From: an archaeon
GTDB lineage: Archaea; B1Sed10-29; WALL01; WAMD01
Direction: 5' to 3'
NCBI GenBank assembly: GCA_024275655.1
Contig: JAJRYR010000040.1
Location: forward strand, 1 to 53,177
Length of the DNA stretch: 53,177 bases
Made by a program: the position numbers and the translations under genes. The notes below the pieces were generated by a model. That model ran no database searches. It saw only the letters and a list, made by a program, of their open reading frames with translations, and was not told the DNA's origin. This document shows, one piece after another, positions 29,452 to 49,344 of the stretch; position 1 is the first letter of the stretch, and the number at the start of each line of letters is the position of its first letter.

Positions 29452-29524
<73 letters not shown>

Positions 29525-32914: not shown

Positions 32915-32936
32915 GATGGGCTTCTTTTTATTTTTG

Positions 32937-33967: not shown

Positions 33968-33968
33968 G

Positions 33969-35840
33969 ATGGGTATCCCCTATCCTGTGATGAAGAAGGT
34001 GGCAAAGAAATTGGCAAAGATGAGGGAGAGTGAAGAATCAAAGGCCACCCTAGAGGAAATACTAGAAATGTCCGAGGACGAGCTGAAGGCCAGGTTAAAA
34101 CCACCACAGAGAACAGTGAAACCCATAAATCTCTCGGAGATAGAGCCAGAAAAACTGGAAAAGGCAGTTGTTACAGAGAAGGAAGAGGAAGGGATGGGTA
34201 AGATAAAGGTGGTAGATTTCACCAAGATGGGCGAAAGCCTAGTCACAGTCGCCAGAGTTTCAGAAGAAGCTGAAAAGGTAAAACACATACCATTCAAGGC
34301 ACACCAGATACCTAAACAGTATGTAAAGAAGATACCATCAAAATGGAGGCCTCCTAGGCTAGAGGAAGTTAATTTAAAGTATGAATTGATCCCACCTTTT
34401 GCGTATGCAAGGATCAGATGGGAAAAGGACGAGTCCGCACTCAGGTATTATGTGATTGAACCATATCTCACTGAAGATCAAAAAAAGATACTTGACAACT
34501 TGAAAGAGCTGTTGATAGATGCGCTGGACGTCAATGTGTTTGAGATAAAGAACCCTGAAAAGATACGGGGAATGTTGAAGAAGAAAGTAGATTCCATCAT
34601 AAATGAATACGGGATAAGTTTAACTAAAGAGGAGTACGACAAGATACTTTATTACATATTCAGGGACTTTCTAGGATTGGAAAATATAGAGCCGTTAATG
34701 CATGATCCGGCATTGGAAGACATTTCATGCGATGGCGTGAAAGTCCCCATATACGTTTACCACAGAAAGTACGCATCTTTAAAGACAAACATTGTGTTTG
34801 AAGATGAGGAATCCTTGAACAAGTTCGTTATTAGATTAGCCCAGAAATGCGGAAAACACATTTCCGTGGCAGAACCATTGCTGGATGCTGCACTACCAGA
34901 CGGGTCCAGAGTTCAGGCTACATTCTCCGCTCACAGGGATATCGCCATGAAGGGTTCAACGTTCACAATAAGAAAGTTCACAAAGGATCCACTAACCATA
35001 ATAGACCTGCTGAACTTCGGTACATTGCCTGCAATCATGGCAGCATATCTCTGGTTGGCAGTTGAGTATGGAAAATCCATTCTAGTAGCAGGAGGTACCG
35101 CAACTGGTAGAACCACCTTCCTAGGGGCACTAAGCATGTTCATACCTCCAGAAAAGAAGATAGTTTCAATAGAGGATACACCAGAAATTAGGTTACCACA
35201 CGAGCACTGGGTCCAGAAGGTTGTGAGAACAGGATTCGGTAGGGAGGACATAACTGGAAGGAAGATGGGAGAAGTAACCATGTATGACTTGCTGAGGGCA
35301 GCATTGAGAGAAAGACCAGATGAGATAATAGTGGGAGAGGTCAGAGGTACGGAGGCATACGTTCTATTCCAAGGTATGGCCACGGGCCACCCGGGTATGG
35401 CTACCATACACGCAGATTCAGTAGATGCCGTGCTTCACAGATTACAAACACCCCCAATAAACTTGCCAGTGGGTTTGCTCCAGCACCTAAATATCGTAAT
35501 AATCCTGACAAAGGCCAGGGTCAAGGGAGTTGAAGTTAGGAGAGTAAAAGAACTTGCAGAGGTTGTTGGATTAACGAAAGAATTCAGACCAATAGTCAAC
35601 GAATTAATGAAGTGGAACGCAGCTGACGACTCGTTTGAATTCGTGTCTGACAAGTCCTATGTTCTAGAAGATATAATAGAAGAAAAGGGAATTGATGAAG
35701 CAAGCATTTGGGCAGAAATACAGAGGAGAGCATCCATACTGGAATGGATGCAAAAGAACAACATAAGGCACTACCTTGAAGTTGGCAAGATAATACGAAC
35801 ATATTATACAAACCCAGAGGAGGTGCTCAAGAACATATGA
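33969..35840 (+). CDS. Type II/IV secretion-family ATPase (ArlI/EpdL/TadA-like) with Walker A Lys->Arg
   Basis: Walker A reads AGGTATGRTTFL (AGA at 35109-35111). Walker B RPDEIIVGEVRGTEAY. His box MATGHPGMATIHADS. Charged N-terminal extension of about 150 aa. Confidence 0.88.
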   Translation: MGIPYPVMKKVAKKLAKMRESEESKATLEEILEMSEDELKARLKPPQRTVKPINLSEIEPEKLEKAVVTEKEEEGMGKIKVVDFTKMGESLVTVARVSEEAEKVKHIPFKAHQIPKQYVKKIPSKWRPPRLEEVNLKYELIPPFAYARIRWEKDESALRYYVIEPYLTEDQKKILDNLKELLIDALDVNVFEIKNPEKIRGMLKKKVDSIINEYGISLTKEEYDKILYYIFRDFLGLENIEPLMHDPALEDISCDGVKVPIYVYHRKYASLKTNIVFEDEESLNKFVIRLAQKCGKHISVAEPLLDAALPDGSRVQATFSAHRDIAMKGSTFTIRKFTKDPLTIIDLLNFGTLPAIMAAYLWLAVEYGKSILVAGGTATGRTTFLGALSMFIPPEKKIVSIEDTPEIRLPHEHWVQKVVRTGFGREDITGRKMGEVTMYDLLRAALRERPDEIIVGEVRGTEAYVLFQGMATGHPGMATIHADSVDAVLHRLQTPPINLPVGLLQHLNIVIILTKARVKGVEVRRVKELAEVVGLTKEFRPIVNELMKWNAADDSFEFVSDKSYVLEDIIEEKGIDEASIWAEIQRRASILEWMQKNNIRHYLEVGKIIRTYYTNPEEVLKNI

Positions 35841-36715
35841 ACGTAATCCGTAGGTACACGCTGTTGGCCTATTCCCTGCTGAAAAAGCATGTCAGGAGAG
35901 TTCTCCCTCATTTTAAACATTTAAAGCCAGTGTTAGAGTCGGCGTATTTTACCATACCAATTGAGGAGTATCTGGCAGCCATGATTCTAACCGCAGCACT
36001 GGCCTTTCCTGGCGCATTTCTCCTAGGAGTCGTTATTGGCATTGCACTTGGTTACCAGTGGCTAGGTGTTCTCATAGTGAGCATACTCTTCGCCATATTG
36101 GTGGACGGGCTGATCATTGGTGTTTTCATGATGTATCCACAGTACAAGCTGAAATCCATAAGCAACAACATAGAAAAATTTCTACCTTACGCGGCTACCC
36201 ACATGGCAACTATAGCTGGAACAGGTGTTCCTCCCCAGGTCATATTCCAGATGATTGGGGGGTTTAAGGACTACGGGATGGTATCCTACATTTGTGAAAG
36301 GATCGCTAGAAATGTGACTGTCTTCGGTTATGATATAGTAACAGCAATATCAGAAGAAGCAAAGAGGGTTCCCTCATATAAATTTAAGGACATACTGTGG
36401 AGCATTGCCTCTACAATAAGATCGGGTGGTGATTTAAGAGGGGTGTTGTTAGAAAAATCAAAAGCGCTGATGGAGGACCAAAGAAGAACAGAAGCCAAAT
36501 ACATAGAATTCCTGTCCATGATGGCAGAAGTGTATGCTACTGTATTTGTTGCCGGGACAATTATAATATTTGTAATGGTAAGTATAATCGGTGTCATAGG
36601 TGGTCTTCCAATTCCAGTTAAGAGCATACTTCAACTGTTCACTTATCTAATGATACCACTCGCATCCATAGCGTTCATTGTTATGATAGACTCAACAAAA
36701 CCAACGGGTGTGTAA
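35837..36715 (+). CDS. Pilus platform membrane protein, half-size (single T2SSF domain; TadB/EpdJ-like)
   Basis: LPYAATHMATIAGTGVPPQVIFQMIGG plus flanking TM segments. ATGA overlap with the ATPase gene. Confidence 0.75.
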   Translation: MNVIRRYTLLAYSLLKKHVRRVLPHFKHLKPVLESAYFTIPIEEYLAAMILTAALAFPGAFLLGVVIGIALGYQWLGVLIVSILFAILVDGLIIGVFMMYPQYKLKSISNNIEKFLPYAATHMATIAGTGVPPQVIFQMIGGFKDYGMVSYICERIARNVTVFGYDIVTAISEEAKRVPSYKFKDILWSIASTIRSGGDLRGVLLEKSKALMEDQRRTEAKYIEFLSMMAEVYATVFVAGTIIIFVMVSIIGVIGGLPIPVKSILQLFTYLMIPLASIAFIVMIDSTKPTGV

Positions 36716-37918
36716 ATGGTAAAAAGAGAAATGAATGCGTATCTAAAGGTGAAGGAGATATACAGGAAGATCCCACTATTTTGGAAAAACATAATTCTCA
36801 TACTGGCCGTTGGAATACTAATAGGGTTAATTGCCATATCAATTGTCGGTTTGTACATTGGAGTGACTGTTCTATTCTTTGCTATATCGGTGCCTTTCGC
36901 GGTATACACGTATCAAGAACGTAAGAGGATTGATGACATTGAAAAACACTTGTCAGATTTCCTGCGTGACCTGGCAGAATACAACGTGTCTGGATTGCCC
37001 CTAGCTCAAGCAATAATGCAAACTGCAAAGAGTGACTATGGGGCTTTAACACCTGAAATAAAGAAACTTGCTGCGGAAATCTCTTGGGGGGTGCCCTTTG
37101 AAGAGGCACTGGAAAGACTGCAGAATAGGATAAATAGTCCATTCGTGAGAAAAGCTGTGACAATTATAACCACTGCAGAGGCTCAAGGTGGAGAAGTAAA
37201 TGCAATACTCCAGACACTTGCAGAAGACCTCAGAAAATTGAAACAAATTGAGGAAGAAAGAAAGGGAAAACTGTCAGTGTACACTGCCACCATATATGTC
37301 ATATTCCTATTACTGCTGGCGATAATGGTGATGCTGACTGCCACACTGGCTCCAGCAATCCCAAAAATACAAGTGGCTGGTCAGTTCTTCGGTGGTATGG
37401 GGGGTGGCTTAACTGAAAAGGATTTCCGAACTCTCCTATTTCACGTCTCGCTAATTGAAGCATTCTTTGCTGGATTGATATCAGGGCAAATGGGTGAGGG
37501 CAGCGTAACTGCTGGATTAAAACACTCCATAGTGCTGGTGGCAATAACATTGTTTGCCTTCTCATTCGTATCTCCTGCCCCACCAGCACAAAAGATAGCA
37601 GAATCCATAATTGAAATTCCACCGGTGGAAGGGATACAGGGTACCTCACTCACTTACGAAAGCACTTTCAAGGAGAGCTTCACAGTCACAGATGTTGCCG
37701 ATAGAGTTAGAGAGCTGGCAAAGGAAAGAAACTTGCAAACGTATAAGACATTTACCCCGGACAAGGTAAAATTCGTAGTGACCACATGTAACGCATGTAA
37801 TGAAGGTAAGATAAACATTGATGAAACAACCGTAACTGTAAATGAACCCACAGACATGAAGTACAGAGTTTACTTCTCCGGTGGAAAGTATATTGTTGAG
37901 TTTAGTGATGCAACATGA
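36716..37918 (+). CDS. Pilus platform membrane protein, half-size (T2SSF domain) with ~110-aa C-terminal soluble extension
   Basis: LSDFLRDLAEYNVSGLPLAQAIMQTAKSDYGALTPEIKKLAAEISWGVPFEEALERL, TM segments, then a non-hydrophobic tail ending ...GGKYIVEFSDAT. Confidence 0.75.
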   Translation: MVKREMNAYLKVKEIYRKIPLFWKNIILILAVGILIGLIAISIVGLYIGVTVLFFAISVPFAVYTYQERKRIDDIEKHLSDFLRDLAEYNVSGLPLAQAIMQTAKSDYGALTPEIKKLAAEISWGVPFEEALERLQNRINSPFVRKAVTIITTAEAQGGEVNAILQTLAEDLRKLKQIEEERKGKLSVYTATIYVIFLLLLAIMVMLTATLAPAIPKIQVAGQFFGGMGGGLTEKDFRTLLFHVSLIEAFFAGLISGQMGEGSVTAGLKHSIVLVAITLFAFSFVSPAPPAQKIAESIIEIPPVEGIQGTSLTYESTFKESFTVTDVADRVRELAKERNLQTYKTFTPDKVKFVVTTCNACNEGKINIDETTVTVNEPTDMKYRVYFSGGKYIVEFSDAT

Positions 37919-38337
37919 GGGGGGATGCAAACATAGATTTTATAATGTCCTTAATGATATTCCTGGGATTTATAACATTCGTACTGGTATCCCTAAACCA
38001 AATCGTCATAACCCAAACCCCAAAACAAGAGTTACTTGAGTATCAAGAGTATCTCGTTTCAGGTATGCTGTTGAAAAAATTGTCATACGACGGAAGACTG
38101 AACATACTAGACCAATCAGTTTTAGATTCCGTCGTAAATTGTGACCAACTGGACCTGGGGGTCACCACACACATCTACTATGAGGTTTCCACTAGATCAA
38201 AAACGTGGAAGTGCACCCCATCAGAAAATCCATCCACTGCAATGCCCTACATACAACGGCCAGTGTACGTTAAACTGAAAAACGGTAGGGAAACACCGGG
38301 GATATTGAAGGTGTGGGCATGGGGCGAGGTTACATAA
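37915..38337 (+). CDS. Pilin-like protein (MRG/DANIDFIMSLMIFLGFITFVLV)
   Basis: Three-residue leader ending in R-G, then a hydrophobic helix. ATGA overlap with the upstream gene. Confidence 0.6.
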   Translation: MRGDANIDFIMSLMIFLGFITFVLVSLNQIVITQTPKQELLEYQEYLVSGMLLKKLSYDGRLNILDQSVLDSVVNCDQLDLGVTTHIYYEVSTRSKTWKCTPSENPSTAMPYIQRPVYVKLKNGRETPGILKVWAWGEVT

Positions 38338-38699
38338 GGATTGTTGAGGCAATACTGTTGTTGTTGGTGTTGTTTTCACTAATAGTATTCATCGCAGGTC
38401 TTGGGCCCACAACACCCCCAAATCCCAGCAATCCCCCCACACTGGTACGGTATGGGAAGGACTTGACGAACATGGTCTGCAACTCCGAGAGAGCCAGGAG
38501 ACTAATTTTAACAGGGAACCTAGTCCCCATATATCAAGACCTTGTATACGTTACGCCACCCGAATACAAGATACGGTTGATATCCGATGGAGCTGTGGTT
38601 GGAGAAACACCGAGTTCAGGAAACTTGGTGTCCTATGGGTGCGTGATCTCTGACATGTTCGGAAATCAGAAGAATGTGACTGTTCAGGTGTGGGTATGA
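38319..38699 (+). CDS. Pilin-like protein (MGRG/YIRIVEAILLLLVLFSLIVF)
   Basis: The ATG at 38319 is preferred over the GTG at 38313. Class III signal-like N-terminus. Confidence 0.6.
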   Translation: MGRGYIRIVEAILLLLVLFSLIVFIAGLGPTTPPNPSNPPTLVRYGKDLTNMVCNSERARRLILTGNLVPIYQDLVYVTPPEYKIRLISDGAVVGETPSSGNLVSYGCVISDMFGNQKNVTVQVWV

Positions 38700-39919
38700 A
38701 AGGGCAGTACTTCCTACCAATGGTGCTACTGGCTTTATTTCTAGTCACCATGATATTCGTGTACTACTCATCAACAAACCAGGTGGCCATCTATCAAACA
38801 TACTCCTACAAGCCCACCCTAGGCGACAAGCTATCAAAAGTGGTGAGTGACATAAAGCAAGCATATGTGGAAAGCATATACCTGGGCAATCCATCTCATT
38901 TAGATGAAGTCATCACGCAATTAACATCTCAAGCTGCCCAAAGAGGCGAAACACTGCTGGTTTCATGTGCAAGGGGAGAAGCTGGGAACAACTTTTGGGT
39001 TGCGTGTTCTGTAAATTTGACCAGTGGGGAAGATCTCGCCAAGACAAAGTTCAACTACACATATGTTGTACCATTCAATATCAAGACATACCTCGACCCC
39101 TATTTCGCTCAAGAGACTAGTTACTTCTACAAAGGTGACAAGGTTTACCTTTGGATTTCCGGGAACAACTCAGACAAAGTGGCTGTTAAAGTTTACGATC
39201 CGTATGGTATAGTTTACACAAACTGGACTGGACAATTTGAAAACTGGCACTGGAACGCCAGCTTTACCCCAAGTATAAGCGGAAACTGGACGATATCCGC
39301 GGAGGATCTAAACACCAGTCAAGTAACTACTAAAAGAATATACGTAAACGTAATCCAGATTACGCTCAAAACCTTCAATTCAAATGGAACCGAACAGACG
39401 GATTTTTATCCGGGTGAAACTGTAAACGTGAGTGTGTGGTTGAAGGACCTGTACAATAACCAACCGAACTGCTCAGTGAAGGTGGACTTTACAAATGCTA
39501 TAGGAAAACAAGCATACAGTTTGGAAGGTCTAGCGGAAGACGGCTTCTTCACTGGACTAGTTAAACTAAGCCCCTGGGAAATTCCAGGGAACATGACCAT
39601 AACAGCAACAGAACACTGTTATTGGTCACAAGATCAAATAAACATAACCATATTGGGTACCTACTGGGATAGATTCGTAAAGATAGAACCACCAAGGATG
39701 TACTACAACAAACCACACACAGAAGTATTCGGTTCCACTTGTGGGTACAGCGATTGGTACAGTTCAAATGAAACCAGTTACAACATTGTTCCATTTTACA
39801 TTGAGAACACTTCCTCCAATACTAACCTCTTGATTAATCAAACAACCCTAGTGATAGATGTCCCGAATGTAAACGTGTCATGGATACATTTCCTAGGCAG
39901 CAAGAGGGTGATACTATGA
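38696..39919 (+). CDS. Large pilin-like protein with beta-rich, sequon-rich extracellular domain
   Basis: MKG/QYFLPMVLLALFLVTMIFVYY. ATGA overlap at 38696. At least 12 N-x-S/T sequons (NLT, NYT, NNS, NWT, NAS, NTS, NGT, NVS, NMT, NIT, NET, NQT). YPGETVNVSVWL is a CARDB/Ig-like block. Confidence 0.6.
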   Translation: MKGQYFLPMVLLALFLVTMIFVYYSSTNQVAIYQTYSYKPTLGDKLSKVVSDIKQAYVESIYLGNPSHLDEVITQLTSQAAQRGETLLVSCARGEAGNNFWVACSVNLTSGEDLAKTKFNYTYVVPFNIKTYLDPYFAQETSYFYKGDKVYLWISGNNSDKVAVKVYDPYGIVYTNWTGQFENWHWNASFTPSISGNWTISAEDLNTSQVTTKRIYVNVIQITLKTFNSNGTEQTDFYPGETVNVSVWLKDLYNNQPNCSVKVDFTNAIGKQAYSLEGLAEDGFFTGLVKLSPWEIPGNMTITATEHCYWSQDQINITILGTYWDRFVKIEPPRMYYNKPHTEVFGSTCGYSDWYSSNETSYNIVPFYIENTSSNTNLLINQTTLVIDVPNVNVSWIHFLGSKRVIL

Positions 39920-40161
39920 AAAAAGTGATCTTGATAACCATCGTTGGAGGATTAATCGCATTGATGGTATCTTTACTGATAGTGGTATCCATGGAAAAAA
40001 CAGCGAGCCCAGTCCCGGTGATTTACAACCACACGTTGGAACCTGAAAAGGAATCTGTTCCCGAGCCCGCACTGACGTTCAACGAAACTGCGCCACCCTC
40101 AAGCAAATTGAATCCCGATGAAGATGCGCCTCCAATGATAGCGGAGGTGCCATCAAAATGA
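39916..40161 (+). CDS. Small N-terminally anchored protein with Pro-rich tail (hypothetical)
   Basis: MKKVILITIVGGLIALMVSLLIVV then ...SPVPVIY..PEKESVPEPA..APPSS..DAPPMIAEVPSK. ATGA overlaps at both ends. Confidence 0.5.
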   Translation: MKKVILITIVGGLIALMVSLLIVVSMEKTASPVPVIYNHTLEPEKESVPEPALTFNETAPPSSKLNPDEDAPPMIAEVPSK

Positions 40162-43100
40162 GATGGAGTTTGTTATTCACTGTAATGTTGATCTCGCTAT
40201 CTGTGGCAGTAACAATCACAAATTCTGGAAGTTACGACACGATCAACGCCAAGCACTACAAGATAGATGCCGTGGTGGATCCAACTCTCTCCAACTTTGG
40301 ACAGTTGACAAACTGTTATGCAAACGACTACAACCCGACACAGGTATTGAGGTCTTCTGCAGACGGTCACTGCTTGTTCATGAGGGTGTACAAGGCCTCT
40401 CTTCCAGGATCTGGATGGTATGCATTAGAAACCGCGCTTGGAGGAGGATCCAGGTACATAGAAGAGGACGGTCCTTTCCGAGTAAAGCTGGTTTTCACGT
40501 ATGCGGACGGTGCCGTGAACATAACCTATTATTTTTACGATGATTTCTTCGTCCAAAGGTTCACATCCCAGGGATATTCCGGTAGCTACAATGATGGATT
40601 TGCAAATGCTTTTGCAGTGAATGATCTAACTAACACCGTTGGGCCAGACTCCTGGGGATTGAACTACGTGGAAGGTTCTTCAACCACATCTCCAATAGAT
40701 ACCAGCACCAACTCCGCAACCACGAGTTATGACACTTTTGCCTTGGGTGGCCAAACTGCATGGACCAGCTGGTATTCGAGTAGTCCATCTGGCCTACTAC
40801 TGGGGGCAGTATATCCGCCAATACCTGCTAGTGCTACAGACTATGCTAGCTACGCTTATGATAGAGAGGACACCACCACAACCTATGACCAGTTCAGTGC
40901 AGGGCACACCAACACAAATGGGTATGTATCCGTTGACTTCGTGTCTGGCATATTCCAGTACGGGGTGGGGAACTCTGCAGATTTGACCAGAGGGTTATTT
41001 TTGCATTACACGAATCCTGCCATTTTGACCTGTGTAGAGGATTGCGACTCTGCAGATTTTGATAGCATGGAATTCATATACTCCGTAATGCCCGCCCCTG
41101 GAACAAGGGTTAATGTAACAAAGTTCAGCGTTACTGGAAATGCAAACTGGATAAACAATCAAACTGTCTATGTGAAAGTTTGGAATGCTGTGGGATCCGA
41201 GGTTTACAAGTCCACCGATGGTGTAAACTGGACATTATATCTAAACTCCTCACAGGTGCAACAAGAGGACAATTACATAATATTCGGCGATGAAATTGCA
41301 CCGGGACAAACTGTTTATTACTTAATACGAAAATCTAGGGGAACAGGTGTAACTGTTCCCAAAGAGGTTATTCCCTCGATGGATCCTCGCCCCTTTTTGG
41401 ACTCTGGCGATACCGCGTATCCAAAAGCCATTGTAATAGCAAGTGATGGATCAATCGTGGACGATGCGACTGTTAAAGCACTAATAACCGGTCCAACTTC
41501 GGCAAGTTTGGAGTTGATGTTCAATAACGACACTCTCGCATACAATGGAACGCTGGGAACCACAGGATATCCCGCAGGAGTGTACACTGAGACAGTTTAC
41601 GCAAACAAGACAATTCCCAGAGACACGAATATCACGGAGTGTAGCTCCTACTGGGGGTTTGACTGTGGGTATGGTCCTCCGGAAACAGGGGATAACACCT
41701 TTGACACGTGCCCCACAGGAACTGGAAACGACGAATCTGTTGAGGGTATTTGGATAAACGCAACTAGAGTTTATCCTGGGGATACAGTGGAGGTCACATG
41801 CGAATTTGACACATACGATACTCTTTATGATCAAGAGTACATATGGTACTACAACGGAACTGGATGGAGAAAACTCTGGGAAGGAGATGTTGGGGCAAAC
41901 GTAGTTGCAAACAAAACAGTAACATTCACGGTGGACAATGTAACAGGAACTCACTGGGTAAGGTGTTCCATAAGCTATTCCCCGCTAGACCAACCGTGTC
42001 AGGACTCTGGATCATGGTACGATAACGATGACCTGGCTTTTGAGGTAGTGCAGCCAAACGTGAACATTTCCAATCACACCCACTTCCACATATATCCAGG
42101 CGAGGGTGTTTCTGTGTACTCCATCCCATTTGGAGACAGTGAAAACAAAACATTCCTAGAAAACACACATATTGTGGCGGCACTGGACAGTAGAAAACTA
42201 GTGTACTACGTGTTCCAAAAGGACACAGGGGTGGAGTACACCTTCAAGAATCCAGAATACCTGCACTCCCTTGGGGGGCTGGGAATCTCAAGTGAAGGGG
42301 GTTTGGAAGGCGGATCCACCTTCTCATGGGATGCCGGTGAAAACTTAACTAGTGGAACAGTGATTGCAAATACAAGTGTTGTAGAACCACTGGGCAAAAA
42401 AGTTTGTTTTGTGTGCTACACTGCTGGATCACCAAGCGCCACATATGAATTGCCATACATACAAGCACTGGAGGCTCTGGGCTACACTGTGGAATACAAC
42501 ACTCCCACATGTAACTATGATTATACTGATATACAATATGGAACTGCAGACTTTAGTGGTTATGATTTTTGGGCCCACAGCTGGATCTATGTAAACAGTC
42601 CTGGAACTCTGGCAAATGCAAAAACCAAGTACGTAGATGAGCTGGGCCAGAACGAGTTGATACTCGGACCGGACGCCACGTATTTAGCAGATTTTGGATA
42701 CGCAAACGTAAACGAGAGAAGATACTATCCTTCAGCGATTGCACAAATAAAAACAAACGACGGGTTCTTACCAGAAGAGGATTATGATATCGGAGAAACT
42801 GTCAAGCTAACGAACGATCCATCAAGCAGGTACCAGTATGTAACTAGAGAAGGCAATCTGATCCCAGAGGTAACTCCAGTATTAACAGCTGGTGGTTCAA
42901 CGGACTTCGCAACCTCTGGTTACTACATAAACCAAACTAGTGGGGGGAAGATGATCTACTTTGGAATTGCAGAAGATGCTGTGCAGCAGTTAACAAACTA
43001 CTCCGACAATGAGGATAACGGGCTGGAAGTTCTAGATCACTTCGCAAAATGGGTGGGGGGATCTAGGGTTTACATTCTAGCCAACATAACTTTGAGAGAT

Positions 43101-44480
43101 GAAGACGATGATTACTTGCTGTTCTCACTAACAAACTTTTCATCAAACATTCAGAATATAAGTGACCTGTTGGTTGCGTATTCTGGGAGAGTTGGTTCTA
43201 GCTTGTCAGATGATAGAGTCCATTTGGAAAATGGCAGCGACTGGGCAGTAACTGATCTACCAACGAGACAATGGATCTCCGCAGATGGAAACTATTCCAA
43301 CTTCTACGACAACAGCACCATCGATCCAGAGGATAATGTAACAATATCCTTGGTACGTTGGATATCTGATCCAAGTCCTTACTTCTTCATTAGGAGAAAT
43401 TCTGATTCAGAAATGGGCATGCTAAACTACTCAACATCCGGGCTGTCAAGTAGTTCAAAGTTAGCATACCTCTTCGTGTTTACATTAGGAGATTTCATGT
43501 CTATCGATCAATGGATACTGACTGTAGAACACAACGAACTGCCAATCCCCAACTTCATGACCAGGCCAGCAATCTCCTGGAACCAGTCCAAGCTAGATCT
43601 AGGACCAGTAACCGCAGGGTCCTCTGAATCAAAGAATGTTACCCTTCAATTAACTGGTTGGCACGATAATATCAACATAACAGTAATATCTGGCAATGCG
43701 ACTGATTCGCTAGGCGATTACTTCATAAGTGTTAATCCAACACTTGTTAGTTTGGCAAATGGTGAAATCCAAGTATCAGTAACGTGTAGTCCACCAGCCA
43801 CGCAAGCTACCGGATACTACGAGGTAATTGTTAACGCCAGGTCAAAGAGAAATCCAATAGGAGCCAACCTAACAGTTGGTTGCCAAGTCGGGATTGTAAA
43901 TGCATCCCTAGAGTGGAATCAAACACAGTTGAATCTAGGAAGTGTGTACCAGGGAAGGGAGTCCACTGGCCTAGTTAAAGCTGTTCCATATGAAACCAAT
44001 ACAAATGTAATTTTGGAGCAACTGGGAGGGAACGCGACCTTCATACTCCCAAATGTTACTTACATAAATTCATTATCCAGTTCTCAAGATGTGGAGTTCA
44101 CATGCAAACCATATCCATGGACAGAACCTGGGAACTACTCTGCAATCTGGAACATAAGATCTGATCAACAACCTAGCGGGGACAACTTGACGGTCTTCTG
44201 TGAAGTGAAAAGGGCAAGACAAATTGTTGTGGTTTACACAGATGGAACCTGGGATATATCCCCATTCAATCTAGACGACTGGTTGCTGGGCACTGGAGAT
44301 GTACAATCTGCATTTCCATACTCCTGTGATACCTCAAGTGGAACTGCCTACATCTATTACTACAATATCACAGTAAACCCTAACAAGATAGTGGACAAGA
44401 TAGTATTTAGCGATAATTCTACCAGCGAGCTCCAGCAGATAACCGCGATAACAATGGAGAGAACACCAGGCACATACTAG
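40158..44480 (+). CDS. Giant (1440 aa) secreted protein, probably glycosylated; candidate pilus-associated adhesin or cargo
   Basis: Sec-type signal MRWSLLFTVMLISLSVAVT. Composition rich in Thr/Ser/Asn/Tyr/Gly. Many N-x-S/T sequons. CARDB-like block YPGDTVEVTCEFD. Two tandem ~100-aa Ig-like repeats near the C-terminus. No C-terminal TM segment. Confidence 0.7.
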   Translation: MRWSLLFTVMLISLSVAVTITNSGSYDTINAKHYKIDAVVDPTLSNFGQLTNCYANDYNPTQVLRSSADGHCLFMRVYKASLPGSGWYALETALGGGSRYIEEDGPFRVKLVFTYADGAVNITYYFYDDFFVQRFTSQGYSGSYNDGFANAFAVNDLTNTVGPDSWGLNYVEGSSTTSPIDTSTNSATTSYDTFALGGQTAWTSWYSSSPSGLLLGAVYPPIPASATDYASYAYDREDTTTTYDQFSAGHTNTNGYVSVDFVSGIFQYGVGNSADLTRGLFLHYTNPAILTCVEDCDSADFDSMEFIYSVMPAPGTRVNVTKFSVTGNANWINNQTVYVKVWNAVGSEVYKSTDGVNWTLYLNSSQVQQEDNYIIFGDEIAPGQTVYYLIRKSRGTGVTVPKEVIPSMDPRPFLDSGDTAYPKAIVIASDGSIVDDATVKALITGPTSASLELMFNNDTLAYNGTLGTTGYPAGVYTETVYANKTIPRDTNITECSSYWGFDCGYGPPETGDNTFDTCPTGTGNDESVEGIWINATRVYPGDTVEVTCEFDTYDTLYDQEYIWYYNGTGWRKLWEGDVGANVVANKTVTFTVDNVTGTHWVRCSISYSPLDQPCQDSGSWYDNDDLAFEVVQPNVNISNHTHFHIYPGEGVSVYSIPFGDSENKTFLENTHIVAALDSRKLVYYVFQKDTGVEYTFKNPEYLHSLGGLGISSEGGLEGGSTFSWDAGENLTSGTVIANTSVVEPLGKKVCFVCYTAGSPSATYELPYIQALEALGYTVEYNTPTCNYDYTDIQYGTADFSGYDFWAHSWIYVNSPGTLANAKTKYVDELGQNELILGPDATYLADFGYANVNERRYYPSAIAQIKTNDGFLPEEDYDIGETVKLTNDPSSRYQYVTREGNLIPEVTPVLTAGGSTDFATSGYYINQTSGGKMIYFGIAEDAVQQLTNYSDNEDNGLEVLDHFAKWVGGSRVYILANITLRDEDDDYLLFSLTNFSSNIQNISDLLVAYSGRVGSSLSDDRVHLENGSDWAVTDLPTRQWISADGNYSNFYDNSTIDPEDNVTISLVRWISDPSPYFFIRRNSDSEMGMLNYSTSGLSSSSKLAYLFVFTLGDFMSIDQWILTVEHNELPIPNFMTRPAISWNQSKLDLGPVTAGSSESKNVTLQLTGWHDNINITVISGNATDSLGDYFISVNPTLVSLANGEIQVSVTCSPPATQATGYYEVIVNARSKRNPIGANLTVGCQVGIVNASLEWNQTQLNLGSVYQGRESTGLVKAVPYETNTNVILEQLGGNATFILPNVTYINSLSSSQDVEFTCKPYPWTEPGNYSAIWNIRSDQQPSGDNLTVFCEVKRARQIVVVYTDGTWDISPFNLDDWLLGTGDVQSAFPYSCDTSSGTAYIYYYNITVNPNKIVDKIVFSDNSTSELQQITAITMERTPGTY

Positions 44481-44488
44481 GTGGGTAA

Positions 44489-44806
44489 ATGAGAGTTATA
44501 CTAGCTAAAACCATTTGGGACAGAGTTCTGGGACTGATGTTCAAGAAAGATTTCAGGGATGTTCTAGTAATCGTAATGCCCTACGAATCTAGATTGAACG
44601 GGATACACACGTGTTTCATGAGATTCCCGATAGATGTTTACTTTTTGGACTCAAATGGGGGACTAGTGGGGAAGAGGTTGGAGGTTCCTCCCTGGAAGCT
44701 TGGGGTTTATCCAGATAAGCCAGCAAGGTACATAGTTGAAGTGAAAGCAGGGAGAAAAATTAACTTGGATGAAATTAGGAGAATATTGGGGCTGAGAAAA
44801 GTTTAA
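44489..44806 (+). CDS. DUF192 family protein
   Basis: AKTIWDRVLGLMFKKDF...VLVIVMPY...IHTCFMRFPIDVYFLDSNGGLVG...YIVEVKAG matches the DUF192 (COG1430) pattern. GGTGGG lies before the ATG. Confidence 0.7.
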   Translation: MRVILAKTIWDRVLGLMFKKDFRDVLVIVMPYESRLNGIHTCFMRFPIDVYFLDSNGGLVGKRLEVPPWKLGVYPDKPARYIVEVKAGRKINLDEIRRILGLRKV

Positions 44807-44843
44807 ATTGGATTTTTGCTAAAATAATAGTGGGGGAGAGGGA

Positions 44844-46499
44844 ATGTATTTGCTCAGAACTGAAAAATGTACTAGTTGTAACGCATGTTTAGAAAGTTGC
44901 CCTATTTCTAAGAACCCTAAGATCCAAGATTGCAAGCACTGTCCAGATGCACCCTGCAAAGAGGCGTGCAGATATAATGCTTTCTACGAAGTTTCTCCTG
45001 GAGTTTACGGGATAGATCCCGAGATATGTGTAGGGTGTGGGGAGTGTGCAAAAGCCTGCCCATATGGTGCCATAGTTATTGAGGATAACCTAGCAAAGAA
45101 ATGTACTCTTTGCGGGGAGTGTGTAGTGGCTTGCCCGTTAAATGCTCTAAAGATTGTTGAAACAGAAGAGGAAAAGAGGGAAAAAGAAGACCTACTCGGC
45201 TGGAAAAAACTGAACGAAGGTGTGCCACTGAATGTGTACACGCCCAGCATTCAAGAAGCCAGGCTATTATCCTCCTTTCTAAAACTCCACAGGGAAATGT
45301 TAAGGGAGGACACATATGGATTAGAGAACTTATTCAAGCAATTCCTAGATGCACTGGGGGTAAAACTAGACAAAGATCAGTACAAAGGGTTGCTAAAGTT
45401 GGCTGAGTACGAAACCTCTGGTTTTTCGGTCATAACTCCGCTACTAGAAAACGATGAGTTGGAAGAGATCGCAATAATCGAGAACGATCCCATAAGAGCA
45501 TTTCACAGAAAAAGAGGGTGGATCGACTACAATATGGCCCTGGTAAACAGGGAGAGAATTATAGAACTGGCAAATAAGATGGCCTCCAATCTAGATAGGA
45601 GACTAACACTTCAAGAACCAAGGATGAATGCAAACTTGCCGGACGGATCAAGGCTTCACGCTGTCATACCTCCGGCATCGCACAAGGCCAGTCTTACAAT
45701 CAGGAAATTCAGAAAGAAACCCTTTTCCCCTAGAGAGCTCATAGAAAACAACACATTGTCCAGCGAAGCTCTTGCTTTCCTCTGGATTGGAATGCAACTG
45801 GACTTAAACCTAGTGATCTCTGGATCAACAGGATCTGGAAAAACCACAACACTAAACACCATTCTATGTTTTCTACCAGAGAATCAAAGGCTAATTATCA
45901 TAGAGGAAACTCCGGAGATTGCAGTGTACCACCCTCATCACGTGCGTTTGATAGTAAACAAAGAAAAAGGGTTAACCATGGACAAACTAGTTGAGGACAC
46001 TCTAAGAATGAGGCCAGACAAGGTCATAGTGGGAGAAGTGAGAGAGAAAAATGAGGTAAAGGCATGGGTGAACACAATGCTCGCAGGCCAAGGAAAGGGA
46101 AGCCTAGCCACCTTCCATGCGCTCAGCAGTAGGGAAACTATAAACAGATTACTTAGCCTAGGCATATCAGAAACCGACCTGTCTGCACTGGACTTGATAG
46201 TGGTGCAGAGAAGGTGGACGGACTACGAAACTGGAAAAGAAATCAGAAGAGTATTTGAGATAACTGAAGTGAACTGGACCAAGAAAATAAACCTGAACCC
46301 AATATTCTTGTATGACCCTGATAAAGATGCTTTGGTAAGGACCAGGAATAAAAGCAAAGTCATGGAGAGGGCAAAAAGATTCCTGAAGATAGATCCCAGA
46401 AGAGAGCTAAAAAGGAGAAGCAGATTTCTAGAAAAAACCAACCCCGACCTAATGGATGCTTTCCATCAAATAAGTAGGTGGGGAAAGAGATGTACCTAA
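44844..46499 (+). CDS. Polyferredoxin (four 4Fe-4S motifs) fused to a type II/IV secretion-family ATPase
   Basis: Residues 9-100: CTSCNACLESCP, CKHCPDAPCKEAC, CVGCGECAKACP, CTLCGECVVACP. ATPase part: Walker A ISGSTGSGKTTTLN, Walker B RPDKVIVGEVRE, His box GSLATFHA. Confidence 0.85.
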   Translation: MYLLRTEKCTSCNACLESCPISKNPKIQDCKHCPDAPCKEACRYNAFYEVSPGVYGIDPEICVGCGECAKACPYGAIVIEDNLAKKCTLCGECVVACPLNALKIVETEEEKREKEDLLGWKKLNEGVPLNVYTPSIQEARLLSSFLKLHREMLREDTYGLENLFKQFLDALGVKLDKDQYKGLLKLAEYETSGFSVITPLLENDELEEIAIIENDPIRAFHRKRGWIDYNMALVNRERIIELANKMASNLDRRLTLQEPRMNANLPDGSRLHAVIPPASHKASLTIRKFRKKPFSPRELIENNTLSSEALAFLWIGMQLDLNLVISGSTGSGKTTTLNTILCFLPENQRLIIIEETPEIAVYHPHHVRLIVNKEKGLTMDKLVEDTLRMRPDKVIVGEVREKNEVKAWVNTMLAGQGKGSLATFHALSSRETINRLLSLGISETDLSALDLIVVQRRWTDYETGKEIRRVFEITEVNWTKKINLNPIFLYDPDKDALVRTRNKSKVMERAKRFLKIDPRRELKRRSRFLEKTNPDLMDAFHQISRWGKRCT

Positions 46500-47179
46500 T
46501 AATTCCTGCTATCCTGCTATTGGGGGGATTGGGGATATCCATAACCTTCCACAGTAATCTTCTAGTTTCCATCTCCCCAGGAATTTTAGCGTTAATGGCA
46601 GGAATGTTCTGGAAAAAGCTATCAACGGAGAGAGAAATCGGAAGGATAGAGGCAGAAATCCCAAACGCTGCCATGAAGATGGCCATGTCCCTAGATTCCG
46701 GAATGAGTTTCCTTCAATCCATGCGGGAAATAGCCCTGGGGAATGATAAATTAGCAGAAGAGATGCGGCACGTCATGAGAGAGATAGATGGTGGATCCAG
46801 CGTGCCTTTAGCATTAGAAAACTCTGCTAGAAAGGTGAAATCCAGAGAATACTCCAAATTCATAAACAGATTGATACTTTTGTACAAATTTGGAGGTAAC
46901 GGGGACTCCTTAAGAAAATTGTCCAAAGACATTGTAGAGCAGAGAAAGATAGAGCTGAAACGGTATAGTGGAAAGGCGATTATGTATTCCCTAATTCTCG
47001 TTTCCCTCTCAAGTATTCTCCCCGCCATGTTCCTTGCTTACCTAGTTGTGGGCTCAATGTTTATGAGCATAGATGTGACACCAATAGACGCTCTGCTAAT
47101 TCCCAGTCTTTTATTCCCCAGCTTGAACCTAGCTCTGATATTGCTTATACAATCGAAAAAACCTAGATTCGTGTGGTAA
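46490..47179 (+). CDS. Pilus platform membrane protein, half-size (T2SSF domain; TadB-like)
   Basis: IPNAAMKMAMSLDSGMSFLQSMREIA...GSSVPLALENSA.. with flanking TM segments. The ATG at 46490 follows AGGTGGGG and overlaps the ATPase stop. Confidence 0.7.
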   Translation: MYLIIPAILLLGGLGISITFHSNLLVSISPGILALMAGMFWKKLSTEREIGRIEAEIPNAAMKMAMSLDSGMSFLQSMREIALGNDKLAEEMRHVMREIDGGSSVPLALENSARKVKSREYSKFINRLILLYKFGGNGDSLRKLSKDIVEQRKIELKRYSGKAIMYSLILVSLSSILPAMFLAYLVVGSMFMSIDVTPIDALLIPSLLFPSLNLALILLIQSKKPRFVW

Positions 47180-47181
47180 AA

Positions 47182-47976
47182 ATGTTTAACTGGAAAAAAG
47201 ATCTGGCGTACCTCGGGCTGGAAGATAAAAAGAATACAATACTGGCAGGAGCTATTCTAATCTCACTGCTACTTCTGCTCGTGAACCCCATTCTGTGTTT
47301 AATCCCTCCCATAATAGCAATTGGCTTACCAATGTATCTAGCAGAGGTTAAGAGAGCGAAAATCAGGAAGAGCATTCCAGACCTTGCAATGGATATATCC
47401 AGCCTTTGGGGGGTTCTACCCCTAAGAGACATACTAAAAATGTCTGAAAATCAAGCATTGAGAGAAGCCGGTCTGATGATAGAGAGAGGCGCATCTGTAA
47501 AGGAGGCCTTAAAATCGGCAGTTAAAAAGGAACCAGAAATAAAACCTATCGCAGACATACTCCTCACTTGCTACAAAACTGGAATTGATGCCTCAAAGCT
47601 CCTAAGTTCCCTGGCTGAGGAAATAGCAAGTAAAACTTCAATAGACGAGGAAATGAAGGCTAGTCTAACCATAGAAAAGATGACATTGGTAGGTGCTTCA
47701 GGTGTAATTGTGCCATTCGTGTTGGGTGCCATGTCCTCCCTAACCAATTCATTTTACTTTCCGAACATAGCAGAAATGGGGATAACCACGGTGTCTCAAG
47801 AGACAAAGCAAATGGCAATATTGGGGAGCCAGATATACGTTATTCTATATGCTCTGATCGTTTCATTTTACCTAGCTCTATCCAGTGGTAAATTAAAGAA
47901 AGCCGTGTTGTATTCTGGGGTCTTAGTCCCTCTAGCATTTCTCATTTTTAGTCTGGCCTCTACAATAAAATTCTAG
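47182..47976 (+). CDS. Pilus platform membrane protein, half-size (T2SSF domain; TadC-like)
   Basis: IPDLAMDISSLWGVLPLRDIL...ERGASVKEALKSAV...CYKTGIDASKLLSSLAEEI with flanking TM segments. Confidence 0.7.
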   Translation: MFNWKKDLAYLGLEDKKNTILAGAILISLLLLLVNPILCLIPPIIAIGLPMYLAEVKRAKIRKSIPDLAMDISSLWGVLPLRDILKMSENQALREAGLMIERGASVKEALKSAVKKEPEIKPIADILLTCYKTGIDASKLLSSLAEEIASKTSIDEEMKASLTIEKMTLVGASGVIVPFVLGAMSSLTNSFYFPNIAEMGITTVSQETKQMAILGSQIYVILYALIVSFYLALSSGKLKKAVLYSGVLVPLAFLIFSLASTIKF

Positions 47977-48025
47977 AGCGAAACGGTTTTAAAATAAAAT
48001 GGTTTAACTACTTCTAGTGAGTGCC

Positions 48026-48760
48026 ATGGTAAAAACAATACTAAAAAAGAAGATTTCACTAAAAGGATACACTCTGATTGAAGGATTCCCTGGAATAGGG
48101 TTAATCGGAACAATAGCTGCGAGTTTTCTAGCAGAGAAATTGAACATGGAACTAGTTGGGTACATCTACTCAGAGAAATTTCCTCCAATGGCTAGCATAC
48201 ATGATGGGGTGCCTTACTATCCAGTAAGGCTGTATGCGGACAAAAAGAACAAGATTATTGTTGTCTTTTCTGACTTCGTTATACCTGCAGATATAGTTTA
48301 CGAAATGTCAAATGAGTTGATAACTCTCTTCAAGAAGGAAAAAATGAAGGAAATAATATCTCTGGCTGGAATGACTTCCACATTCGTAACAGAGGAGAGA
48401 GCCGTTTACGCCATAGTATCAAAGGAAGAATTGAAGAAAAAACTGGAAAAATTGGATGTAAGATTTATCCAACAGGGGGTTACAACTGGGGTTTCCGGTG
48501 TTTTATTAATGAAATGTGCAATGGAAGGATTGCCTGCCTTTAGTCTTCTAGCAGAATCCAGCATGGCATACCCCGACCCAGGATCTGCAGCGTTCCTCCT
48601 CAATAAATTGGGCGAGTACCTGGGTATCAAGGTGGAAACTGGCCTACTAGAGGAAGAGGCAAAGAAGATCCAAGAGAGGATCCAGAAAACCATTGAACAA
48701 GTGAGGGCAGGAAGAATGAAATACAAGCAAGCAGAAGAGCATTTGCCCATGTATGGGTAG
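48026..48760 (+). CDS. PAC2 family protein (PbaB-like proteasome assembly chaperone/activator)
   Basis: LKGYTLIEGFPGIGLIGTIAASFLAEKL...YYPVRLY... and C-terminal ...LPMYG (HbYX-type). TTTTAAAATAAAA upstream. The GTG at 48017 is an alternative start. Confidence 0.7.
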   Translation: MVKTILKKKISLKGYTLIEGFPGIGLIGTIAASFLAEKLNMELVGYIYSEKFPPMASIHDGVPYYPVRLYADKKNKIIVVFSDFVIPADIVYEMSNELITLFKKEKMKEIISLAGMTSTFVTEERAVYAIVSKEELKKKLEKLDVRFIQQGVTTGVSGVLLMKCAMEGLPAFSLLAESSMAYPDPGSAAFLLNKLGEYLGIKVETGLLEEEAKKIQERIQKTIEQVRAGRMKYKQAEEHLPMYG

Positions 48761-48798
48761 GTTTTTAAATAAAATAAGCATAATTCTAATGGGGTGGT

Positions 48799-49344
48799 AT
48801 GACCATGATAAAATTGGAGGACTTCCACAGGTTAATCTCTCCCAGACCAACAGTTCTCGTTACCACTGTGGATGAGAAGGGGAGGGAGGATGTAGCTGCA
48901 TTCTCATGGGTAATGCCAGTTAGTTTTGATCCTCCATTGGTGGCCATAGCAATAGGTCCAAATAAGCACTCTTACTGGAACATAACAAGAATAAACGAAT
49001 TCGTGGTAAACATCCCAACAGAGAAAATGCTTGAAAAGGTTTGGATTGCCGGTGGTCCATGGGATCCAAAACAGAGCAAAATAGAGAAGGCGAAGCTAAA
49101 GACAAAACCAAGTGAGCTAGTTAGGCCCCCTAGGTTGGCGGACTGTCCAGTGAACATAGAATGCATGGTAGAGAATGCAAGAAAGGCTGGGGATCACGTT
49201 ATAGTTATAGGGAAAGTTGTGAAGATACACGTAAAAGAAGATGCAATAGATGAAAGAGGGAATTTGAAAGTGGATGTTGTTAGGCCACCACTGCATGTGG
49301 CTGATAACTTATTTGCTTTCCCCTATGTTACAAAGTCCGTCTAA
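48799..49344 (+). CDS. Flavin reductase-like FMN-binding domain protein
   Basis: RLISPRPTVLVTTVDEKGREDVAAFSWVMPVSFDPPLVAIAIGPNKHSYWNI..EFVVNIP. Confidence 0.8.
   Translation: MTMIKLEDFHRLISPRPTVLVTTVDEKGREDVAAFSWVMPVSFDPPLVAIAIGPNKHSYWNITRINEFVVNIPTEKMLEKVWIAGGPWDPKQSKIEKAKLKTKPSELVRPPRLADCPVNIECMVENARKAGDHVIVIGKVVKIHVKEDAIDERGNLKVDVVRPPLHVADNLFAFPYVTKSV

Follow-up and report, generated by a model that had tools for sequence, protein, structure and literature searches.

Introduction

The N-terminal domains of the FlaI and GspE hexamers form a membrane-facing crown that meets the platform protein, and the N-domains of MshE and PilB (MshEN), which occur in ATPases of type IV pili and the type II secretion system, bind cyclic di-GMP and constitute a ligand-sensing site. 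Few prokaryotic nanomachines have been studied as much as type IV filament machines. Their ATPases are regulated via N-terminal add-on domains, and we found none reported to carry a redox cofactor. Here, we analyze a gene from an archaeal contig of 53,177 nucleotides (the window, i.e. the whole stretch of DNA analyzed). It encodes a 551-residue protein, hereafter Fer4-ATPase, in which a type IV filament/secretion ATPase is preceded by a predicted four-cluster ferredoxin module.

In 2016, Makarova, Koonin and Albers described variable N-terminal cysteine-rich domains, interpreted as disulfide-forming, in subclade 4F and Pyrobaculum ATPases; ferredoxin, iron-sulfur (Fe-S) clusters, and DPANN by that name do not appear in the paper's text (PMC4858521). 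A link between their cysteine-rich arCOG05056 and the module of Fer4-ATPase could not be made. A 2026 census of archaeal type IV filaments recorded variable N-terminal ATPase domains as well as two-gene platforms in DPANN, mentioned Fe-S only for the separate protein AapX, and proposed the extra ATPase domains as interfaces for subsystem-specific accessory components (10.64898/2026.04.22.720090). AapX is required for assembly of the Aap pilus and its role is unknown (PMC11178785). In genome papers on Micrarchaeota and Diapherotrites, type IV pili are described together with giant surface proteins (LamG) that are linked to them, and no Fe-S ATPase is mentioned (PMC5498576, PMC8561730). Our full-text literature searches, in which subscription journals were poorly covered, returned no type IV filament ATPase described as having an Fe-S domain. 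This agrees with a preliminary description of the window, which knew of no such feature in these motors and had considered that the architecture might prove both common and already characterized. The architecture is indeed common in the databases, but we found no characterization of it. Existing labels are automatic product names only, such as 'Flp pilus assembly CpaF family ATPase/Fe-S-cluster-containing hydrogenase component 2'. Thus, the Fer4-ATPase architecture is common in DPANN and apparently undescribed.

Results

An N-terminal module of the four-cluster ferredoxin type

The Fer4-ATPase open reading frame (ORF) runs through 551 codons as one frame without interruption, and its N-terminal part comprises the following features.

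44844..46499, + strand: Fer4-ATPase gene, 551 amino acids, predicted N-terminal four-cluster ferredoxin module plus type IV filament/secretion ATPase (Pfam, NCBIfam, AlphaFold2, Foldseek)
44844..45158, + strand: ferredoxin module, residues 1-105, predicted to hold 4 x [4Fe-4S] (Pfam Fer4 families, PDB sequence matches, model, Foldseek)
44868..44903, + strand: cysteine motif I, CTSCNACLESCP, residues 9-20; its first three cysteines (I1-3) would bind one cluster with the fourth of motif IV (IV4), judging from their joint loss in six relatives
44931..44969, + strand: cysteine motif II, CKHCPDAPCKEAC, residues 30-42, CX2CX4CX3C; relatives use CXCX4CX3C
45027..45062, + strand: cysteine motif III, CVGCGECAKACP, residues 62-73; all four cysteines invariant in 71 sequences
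45102..45137, + strand: cysteine motif IV, CTLCGECVVACP, residues 87-98 (alignment, joint cysteine loss)
45159..45209, + strand: acidic/basic linker helix, residues 108-118, followed by the invariant G119-W120 (DSSP on the model, alignment, split junctions)

The start codon is supported by the homologues, which open with M[YR]L and have their first cysteine at residue 8-10, and by the upstream DUF192 gene, which stops 37 nt before the ATG. Sixteen of the 18 cysteines fall within residues 9-97 (positions 9, 12, 15, 19 / 30, 33, 38, 42 / 62, 65, 68, 72 / 87, 90, 93, 97), exactly as the preliminary description had it when it placed 16 cysteines in four motifs within the first ~100 residues, and the remaining 451 residues hold only two (C342 and C550). 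Groups I, III, and IV are spaced CX2CX2CX3CP, and group II is spaced CX2CX4CX3C. Pfam 4Fe-4S families stack on residues 6-113 (Fer4, E=4.5e-17; Fer4_7, E=1e-13), with Fer4_11 passing marginally on residues 28-92 (29.9 bits versus a cutoff of 26.2). Ferredoxin-type NCBIfam models match residues 6-113 as well, all of them below the equivalog cutoff, and the scores for the DmsB (37.7 versus 214), TtrB, DsrO, FDH3 beta, and YdhY-like equivalogs are all far below it. When residues 1-120 were compared with PDB sequences using phmmer, the polyferredoxin MvhB (9sw6_G) matched at 4e-26, FwdF (5t5i_F) aligned over about residues 6-110, spanning all four motifs, and NrfC also matched. In a 1.8-billion library of 50% representatives, the closest non-ATPase proteins are polyferredoxins of 445-463 amino acids (P0125-P0128), and HycB-like ferredoxins of ~150-170 amino acids are also near. 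Generic (poly)ferredoxins dominate this module-only search and ~12 of the 150 matches listed are fused ATPases, so that it does not provide a family census. At the level of sequence, the cysteine pattern and the Fer4 scores are far beyond chance.

We built AlphaFold2 monomer models with a 71-sequence alignment and compared them to the PDB with Foldseek. The isolated module, modeled with a predicted local distance difference test score (pLDDT) of 94.9, has as its best matches only four-cluster electron-transfer subunits, with query-normalized template modeling (TM) scores of 0.64-0.71. These are the small subunits of aldehyde oxidoreductase (AOR; 9mqx_G/E and 8c0z_C), HycB3/HycB4 of the hydrogen-dependent carbon dioxide reductase (HDCR; 7qv7_A/B), and the WOR5 small subunit (6x6u_B), followed by PsrB (2vpw_B), FdhB (9vap_B), HycB of formate hydrogenlyase (FHL; 7z0s_B), FdnH (1kqf_B), ArrB, and NarH. 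A nested double-ferredoxin fold, in which group I pairs with IV and II with III, is supported by this Foldseek class together with the joint cysteine loss described below. The preliminary description had likened the spacing to four-cluster subunits of the DmsB/NrfC/HybA type, which is borne out by the Fer4_11 score, the TM scores, and six 12-cysteine variants, although the protein is not an orthologue of DmsB, NrfC, or HybA. Rather, the module is a minimal (105 residues) member of the four-cluster wire fold and not an orthologue of any named subunit.

A complete type IV filament ATPase

Downstream of the linker, the protein comprises the two domains and four nucleotide motifs listed here.

45210..45743, + strand: ATPase N-terminal domain, FlaI/GspE-like, about residues 123-300 (model, Foldseek)
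45744..46499, + strand: ATPase catalytic C-terminal domain, about residues 301-551, plus the stop codon (Pfam, Foldseek)
45822..45848, + strand: Walker A, GSTGSGKTT, residues 327-335 (alignment)
45891..45920, + strand: Asp box, LIIIEETPEI, residues 350-359; E354, E355, P357, and E358 invariant; aligned to afGspE and FlaI
46011..46043, + strand: Walker B, RPDKVIVGEVR, residues 390-400 (alignment)
46101..46121, + strand: His box, SLATFHA, residues 420-426; S420 and H425 invariant

Pfam T2SSE covers residues 237-456 (E=3.4e-38; 131.7 bits versus a cutoff of 24.9). Each of the four nucleotide motifs has its position-by-position counterpart in afGspE (2OAP) and FlaI (4II7), and the key residues of the motifs are invariant in the 71 sequences. 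Since every ATPase motif is intact, the protein should still be a motor. The full-length model (mean pLDDT 93.6; predicted TM score 0.82) contains the two-domain fold of solved T2SSE members, i.e. an N-domain and a RecA-like C-domain. Its best PDB matches are afGspE 2OAP (E=4e-35), FlaI 4II7 (3e-33; also 4IHQ), and TadA/CpaF 8RJF (1e-29; also 8RKD and 9E24), followed by VirB11, PilT/PilU, DotB, and PilB, and none of its best PDB matches contains an Fe-S domain.

The top NCBIfam models on the C-terminal 400 residues are FlaI, TadA, and VirB11, none of which reaches its equivalog cutoff. The highest scoring, the FlaI archaellum motor (NF058587), was rejected because it scores 198 versus 550 bits and archaellum genes (archaellins, FlaH, FlaF/G) are absent from the locus. 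The TadA/CpaF Tad-pilus equivalog (TIGR03819) falls short as well (167 versus 373 bits). The locus does have Tad-like traits, namely a split platform and a DUF192 gene of a family that is also found in bacterial TadA loci. Judging from motifs and model, Fer4-ATPase is a catalytically complete archaeal type IV filament (FlaI/GspE/TadA-like) ATPase. The earlier reading as a single-ORF fusion to a complete PilB/VirB11-type ATPase with intact Walker A, Walker B, and His box therefore stands as to the open frame, the T2SSE domain, and the motifs. The PilB/VirB11 assignment is correct at the superfamily level, and archaeal GspE/FlaI/TadA-like is more precise. Overall, sequence and models make it highly probable that the protein is a type IV filament ATPase with a four-[4Fe-4S] ferredoxin-type module of the DmsB/PsrB/HycB kind.

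The fusion is widespread in DPANN and its cysteines are under selection

A search of 5.8 billion proteins identified relatives ranging from 94% identity, in a continuing series, down to ~39% with equal length and the same Fer4 plus T2SSE Pfam content. The best 120 clusters were inspected by cysteine counting, and ~90 of these best-scoring clusters proved to be fused, with 12-20 cysteines ahead of the ATPase (mostly 16-18) and the first at residue 8-10. The 90% cluster of Fer4-ATPase has three members including the protein itself, all with an equal 551-residue fusion and located on separate contigs, and the 94%-identical relative is present in two independent assemblies. Few relatives in the fused family bear names, and those that do are all DPANN (Diapherotrites and Micrarchaeota). 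For the alpha subunit of phenylalanyl-tRNA synthetase (PheRS) encoded on the contig, the closest named relatives come from Aenigmarchaeota, Woesearchaeota, and Micrarchaeota (50-55% identity). The source organism is a DPANN archaeon, tiny and of symbiotic type; this assignment uses a handful of NCBI labels and the PheRS alpha neighbors and is resolved only to DPANN.

In the 71-member alignment (39-94% identity), C9, C15, C19, C38, C42, C62, C65, C68, C72, C87, and C93 are invariant, and conservation is ≥97% for C12, C33, C90, and C97. C30 is swapped in 14 of the 71 sequences for a cysteine shifted inside the motif (CXCX4CX3C), which keeps the number at four. C342 and C550, which lie outside the module, are not conserved and thus serve as an internal control indicating that selection falls specifically on the module cysteines. 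At the end of the linker, G119 is invariant and W120 is at least 90% conserved, and it is at this linker that the gene splits in one subclade.

A cysteine-rich N-terminus was found in 0 of the 80 ordinary TadA/CpaF/FlaI-like loci listed (methanogens, other DPANN, and many bacteria; 30-40% identity). It should be noted that these loci derive from a profile scan of genome contigs keyed on generic Walker A/B peptides and are usable only as a negative control, not as a measure of taxonomic spread. Likewise, no four-motif ferredoxin gene is adjacent to the nearest non-DPANN ATPases (Methanobacteriaceae, Methanosarcinales, and Hydrothermarchaeota), where only unrelated two-motif ORFs occur some kb away.

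Split and trimmed relatives

The ATPases of two relatives, P0010 (62% identity) and P0012 (58%), seem to lack Fer4, and their modules are separate 125-residue genes just upstream of ATPase genes encoding 422-425 residues. The split forms are as follows.

L085, 7642-8019 / 8001-9278: module gene / ATPase gene
L086, 7627-8004 / 8001-9269: module gene / ATPase gene
L087: module gene / ATPase gene

The split junction AAA-ATG-A is common to both lineages, with the TGA of the module gene overlapping the ATG of the ATPase gene a few codons past the conserved LGW, and the P0012 arrangement is seen in separate ENA and Logan assemblies. The split forms lie as close to the window protein as fused relatives do, and in every more distant relative examined the two parts are fused. 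The simplest view is therefore a derived fission that has been selectively maintained. The existence of both fused and translationally coupled split forms is evidence of the Rosetta-stone kind for a joint function of module and motor. Two further observations concern the junction itself. The L085 gene call uses an upstream ATG (MGSGKM...), and the conserved junction suggests that the overlapping ATG is the true start. In Fer4-ATPase, a run of six A residues at the module/ATPase junction is shared with the 94% relative; a one-base slip there would recreate the two-gene arrangement.

In the nested topology of DmsB, PsrB, and HycB, I1-3 and IV4 ligate one cluster, while IV1-3 and I4 ligate the next. 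Six relatives with 12 cysteines (P0067, P0086, P0097, P0112, P0113, and P0115) have lost precisely I1, I2, I3, and IV4, whereas I4, IV1-3, and motifs II and III are retained. The joint loss of I1-3 and IV4 would thus remove one whole cluster and leave its neighbor intact. P0087 and P0098 have only motifs III and IV, which corresponds to a plain 2 x [4Fe-4S] ferredoxin, and P0119 and P0120 have no module and retain the LGW connector. This pattern of loss is difficult to explain unless the cysteines are cluster ligands in the nested arrangement. The relatives with four, three, two, and no predicted clusters also form a natural deletion series of experimental use.

A tandem double filament locus

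The genes from 32916 to 49344 are all co-directional and separated by overlaps or by gaps of ≤40 nt. Their order is two pilin-like genes, a Fer4-less ATPase, two T2SSF genes, three pilin-like genes, a gene for a 1440-residue secreted protein, DUF192, Fer4-ATPase, two half T2SSF genes, PAC2, and a flavin-reductase-like gene.

32916..33967, + strand: two pilin-like genes, 203 and 148 amino acids; the first reads ...MAKKG/VSPVVSYVLILALLV, a typical archaeal prepilin N-terminus
33969..35840, + strand: second secretion ATPase, Fer4-less, 623 amino acids, PilB3-like C-terminus (T2SSE)
35837..37918, + strand: two T2SSF platform genes of the upstream system, 292 and 400 amino acids (Pfam)
37915..39919, + strand: three pilin-like genes, 140, 128, and 409 amino acids, with class III-type N-termini ([KR]G plus a hydrophobic helix) and weak DUF7285/DUF7287 matches; conserved in relatives
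40158..44480, + strand: giant secreted surface protein, 1440 amino acids, signal peptide, no Pfam match; a hypervariable slot
44489..44806, + strand: DUF192 protein (COG1430), 105 amino acids, directly upstream of Fer4-ATPase (Pfam DUF192, E=4e-11)
46478..47179, + strand: platform half 1, T2SSF/TadB-TadC-like, 233 amino acids, overlapping the ATPase stop (Pfam T2SSF, E=3.6e-13); follows every Fer4-ATPase examined
47173..47976, + strand: platform half 2, T2SSF-like, 267 amino acids (Pfam T2SSF, 23.8 bits, just below cutoff; conserved synteny)
48017..49344, + strand: PAC2 (proteasome assembly chaperone-like) and Flavin_Reduct genes (Pfam; synteny)
49328-53140, - strand: 1270-residue protein with no significant Pfam domain; in the same position in relatives, 1521-1552 residues in L081-L083, 34-77% identity

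The pilin calls for five of these genes rest on reading of the N-terminal sequences and on the weak DUF7285/DUF7287 matches. The gene order is kept in relatives down to 43% identity (L081-L087), and the locus is thus a conserved tandem double type IV filament locus. L088 (40%) keeps only Fer4-ATPase and the two platform genes, and this trio therefore constitutes the core unit. PAC2 and Flavin_Reduct genes stand behind the platform genes in every relative with at least 43% identity but are absent from L088, so that neither is supported as an obligate partner. The flavin reductase is the sole other redox protein on the contig and, as a weak inference, a candidate redox partner.

The second ATPase shares 28% identity with Fer4-ATPase, and the two are therefore old paralogues. 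Its Walker A (residues 375-383) reads GGTATGRTT, with Arg in place of the invariant Lys at codon 381. L081 (the 94% relative), L085, and L086 have GGTATGKTT in the second ATPase, and the substitution is thus private to the metagenome-assembled genome of the window. Inactivation of this paralogue, variation between strains, or an erroneous base may each account for it; were the substitution genuine, the double locus would have no canonical motor other than Fer4-ATPase.

The slot of the giant protein holds three genes (731 + 291 + 407 amino acids) in the 94% relative (L081 5304-9636) and a 4101-residue LamG/DUF2341 protein in a 47% relative (L083 1-9637). The giant secreted protein is probably a fast-evolving adhesin, and the slot is reminiscent of the pilus loci of Micrarchaeon Mia14, to which giant LamG proteins are linked (PMC5498576). 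The DUF192 gene upstream of Fer4-ATPase is conserved in L081-L087. A tblastn search located DUF192 also in TadA/CpaF loci of bacteria (Bacillota, Chloroflexota, and Acidobacteriota) and in one Woesearchaeota locus, at a distance of ~2-3 kb from the ATPase; the loci with DUF192 near an ordinary ATPase are L004, L006, L020, L023, L029, L055, and L056. DUF192 looks like an unrecognized recurrent accessory gene of Tad-type systems in both domains.

The contig otherwise resembles an ordinary archaeal chromosome, with genes for PAN, Cgi121, S8e, L21e, Rpo4, Tyw1, PheRS alpha and beta, cysteinyl-tRNA synthetase, KsgA, phosphoenolpyruvate synthase, and a CTP-dependent riboflavin kinase, together with five tRNAs. 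Neither a prepilin (class III signal) peptidase gene nor a molybdopterin, hydrogenase, or NrfD-like gene is present on the 53-kb contig. A 394-residue protein with a C-terminal DsbA/thioredoxin-like domain is encoded at 5121-6305 and may be linked to disulfides in the organism's many cysteine-containing secreted proteins. The tRNAs Glu-TTC, Ala-GGC, Leu-GAG, and Val-GAC lie within ~1.1 kb (21949-23026), with Ala-CGC 6.4 kb further (29452-29525); the ORFs called between the tRNAs overlap them and are probably spurious.

Discussion

What might a ferredoxin module do on a filament motor? By analogy with known systems, we tentatively favor a cluster-dependent gating of the motor by redox state, O2, or Fe-S status, to which we assign somewhat less than an even chance. 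The preliminary description had suggested that such a fusion would tie filament assembly or secretion to redox state or electron flow, and we treat this as a proposal. The ATPase would form the usual hexamer under a TadB/TadC-like platform, and six modules, with 24 clusters in all, would decorate its membrane-proximal N-terminal crown, a position taken from the FlaI and GspE structures. A ferredoxin fold needs its inserted clusters, and clusters of this kind are sensitive to O2 and pass electrons to and from the cell's low-potential ferredoxins; it is for these reasons that we propose the module as a reporter of cluster and redox state. The module would signal cluster occupancy and redox state to the ATPase N-domain via the conserved helix-GW connector, such that ring assembly, platform docking, or ATP turnover might occur only in an anoxic, reduced, and Fe-S-replete cell. 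Filament or adhesin deployment would then depend upon that state. Such gating fits with the N-terminal add-on domains of archaeal filament ATPases being a known site of system-specific adaptation (10.64898/2026.04.22.720090). Furthermore, related DPANN lineages are described as fermenters that depend upon pyruvate:ferredoxin oxidoreductase and have no electron transport chain (PMC8561730), and the redox state of ferredoxin would therefore be a sensible readout of energy status.

Several points weigh against gating. Its main weakness is that a linear four-cluster chain is a hallmark of electron conduits and looks over-engineered for sensing. The known Fe-S sensors FNR, SoxR, NsrR, and WhiB each use one cluster. 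Relatives with three, two, or no clusters indicate that the module is not indispensable to this type of ATPase, and no redox partner is firmly linked, as Flavin_Reduct is syntenic only in the closer relatives and absent from L088. We argue that the three-, two-, and zero-cluster variants fit a tunable sensor or adaptor and count against a wire of obligatory length.

A structural role for the clusters is possible, although we judge it rather unlikely. Redox-inert clusters would shape a rigid N-terminal adaptor for contacts with ring subunits, the split platform, or DUF192, in the manner of ABCE1. ABCE1/Rli1, subunit D of archaeal RNA polymerase, and primase are precedents for structural Fe-S domains. 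The cysteines are strictly conserved and yet no redox partner is conserved across all loci, as might be expected of a scaffold, and a separate gene can provide the module in trans, as with a subunit. The census likewise proposes extra ATPase domains as accessory-component interfaces (10.64898/2026.04.22.720090). On the other hand, structural Fe-S domains usually have one or two clusters, and a full four-cluster wire fold, amounting to 24 clusters per hexamer, would be costly for a genome-reduced organism. The stepwise loss from four to three, two, and zero clusters would also reshape an adaptor markedly, while the ATPase and platform stay similar.

We consider it distinctly unlikely that the chain is an electron conduit between cytoplasmic ferredoxin or the flavin reductase and the motor or platform. 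In an extension of this idea, ATP hydrolysis by the ring would gate or drive the transfer, as in the nitrogenase Fe protein and 'archerase' activators, and in the extreme, the filament machine would be an electron outlet to the host. The closest structural relatives of the module are all inter-subunit electron wires, including the nanowire-forming HycB3/B4 of HDCR; its nearest sequence relatives outside the family are polyferredoxins; and Flavin_Reduct is syntenic in relatives down to 43%. Related DPANN without respiratory chains must also dispose of reduced ferredoxin (PMC8561730). Against these stand the platform, pilin-like, and DUF192 proteins, which have only T2SSF, DUF, or no Pfam matches and no evident redox cofactor site, the absence of a catalytic redox subunit from the contig, and the loss of the Flavin_Reduct linkage in L088. 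The shorter or absent chains of relatives likewise argue against an obligatory fixed-length wire. In addition, we know of no precedent for a RecA-type secretion ATPase coupled to electron transfer. That the ring of 24 [4Fe-4S] clusters might be a working electron pathway, with ATP-driven cycling of the ATPase coupled to electron transfer between ferredoxin or flavin and the filament base, is more improbable still. If true, the DPANN pilus machine would be a redox-powered motor or an electron exporter towards the host cell, which would represent a new class of energy/redox coupling for type IV filaments and a conceivable route by which archaeal symbionts exchange metabolites.

A cysteine-rich N-terminal domain that binds Zn or is stabilized by disulfides, i.e. 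not an Fe-S domain at all, would accord with the disulfide-forming reading given by Makarova et al. to the cysteine-rich N-termini of subclade 4F and Pyrobaculum ATPases (PMC4858521). We rejected this as highly improbable. The motifs are canonical CX2CX2CX3CP, the matches to Fer4 (E=4.5e-17 in Pfam) and to solved polyferredoxins (4e-26) are strong, the fold matches cluster-binding subunits, and the protein is cytoplasmic; moreover, the losses follow cluster ligand sets rather than Zn-ribbon or disulfide pairs. Finally, a frameshift or mis-assembly joining a ferredoxin gene to an ATPase gene, which the preliminary description had raised as the way in which the fusion could prove false, might be suspected because the two-gene form is real in one subclade and an A6 run at 45201-45206 (TGG AAA AAA CTG) sits exactly on the module/ATPase junction, where the adjacent frame meets a TGA within three codons, but it is rejected as next to impossible given that the fused protein recurs in separate contigs, independent assemblies, and ~90 clusters down to 39% with the conserved linker kept in frame.

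The gating that we favor suggests that DPANN surface filaments are tied to the redox or Fe-S state of the cell. DPANN depend upon physical contact with a host, for which pili and giant surface proteins are prime candidates. A cluster-bearing motor therefore offers a testable link from the redox/Fe-S state or oxygen exposure of the symbiont to deployment of its attachment apparatus. The target is a tractable one: the 551-residue protein is soluble, and controls exist in nature as variants with two genes, three clusters, two clusters, or no module. A 24-cluster pilus motor would surprise specialists, even though these ATPases are already known to vary at the N-terminus, and it suggests a re-reading of the earlier 'cysteine-rich N-terminal domains' of other archaeal secretion ATPases.

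Comparison with known systems

Fer4-ATPase shares its fold, its four nucleotide motifs, and its T2SSF neighbor with afGspE (2OAP), FlaI (4II7), and TadA/CpaF (8RJF), yet these have no Fe-S domain, whereas Fer4-ATPase has ~120 extra N-terminal residues. The four cysteine groups of the module, including the CX2CX4CX3C second group, are arranged as in PsrB/NrfC/DmsB/FdnH, HycB of FHL and HDCR, and the AOR/WOR5 small subunits. Those four-cluster wire subunits, however, are 150-290 residues in length and have a catalytic redox partner, while the module has 105 residues and is fused to a motor ATPase. By sequence, the closest solved proteins are the polyferredoxins MvhB and FwdF. Polyferredoxins carry 8-12 or more clusters and reside in hydrogenase/formylmethanofuran dehydrogenase complexes, whereas the module is a single four-cluster unit and genes for such complexes are not nearby.

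Among ATPases with an N-terminal ferredoxin-like [4Fe-4S] domain, ABCE1/Rli1 has one that acts on the mechanical output of the ATPase and not on its catalysis. ABCE1/Rli1 is a twin-ABC ATPase with two clusters that functions in ribosome recycling, in contrast to the RecA-type Fer4-ATPase with four predicted clusters in a filament locus. MshEN provides a regulatory input N-terminal to the same ATPase core, but its ligand is a nucleotide second messenger and it has no metal cofactor. The nearest functional precedent is AapX of the Sulfolobus Aap pilus operon, an Fe-S oxidoreductase that is genetically tied to an archaeal type IV pilus. By its description, AapX is set apart as a separate protein of another family (arCOG07320) in Sulfolobales and Thaumarchaeota (10.64898/2026.04.22.720090), whereas the Fer4 module sits on the ATPase itself.

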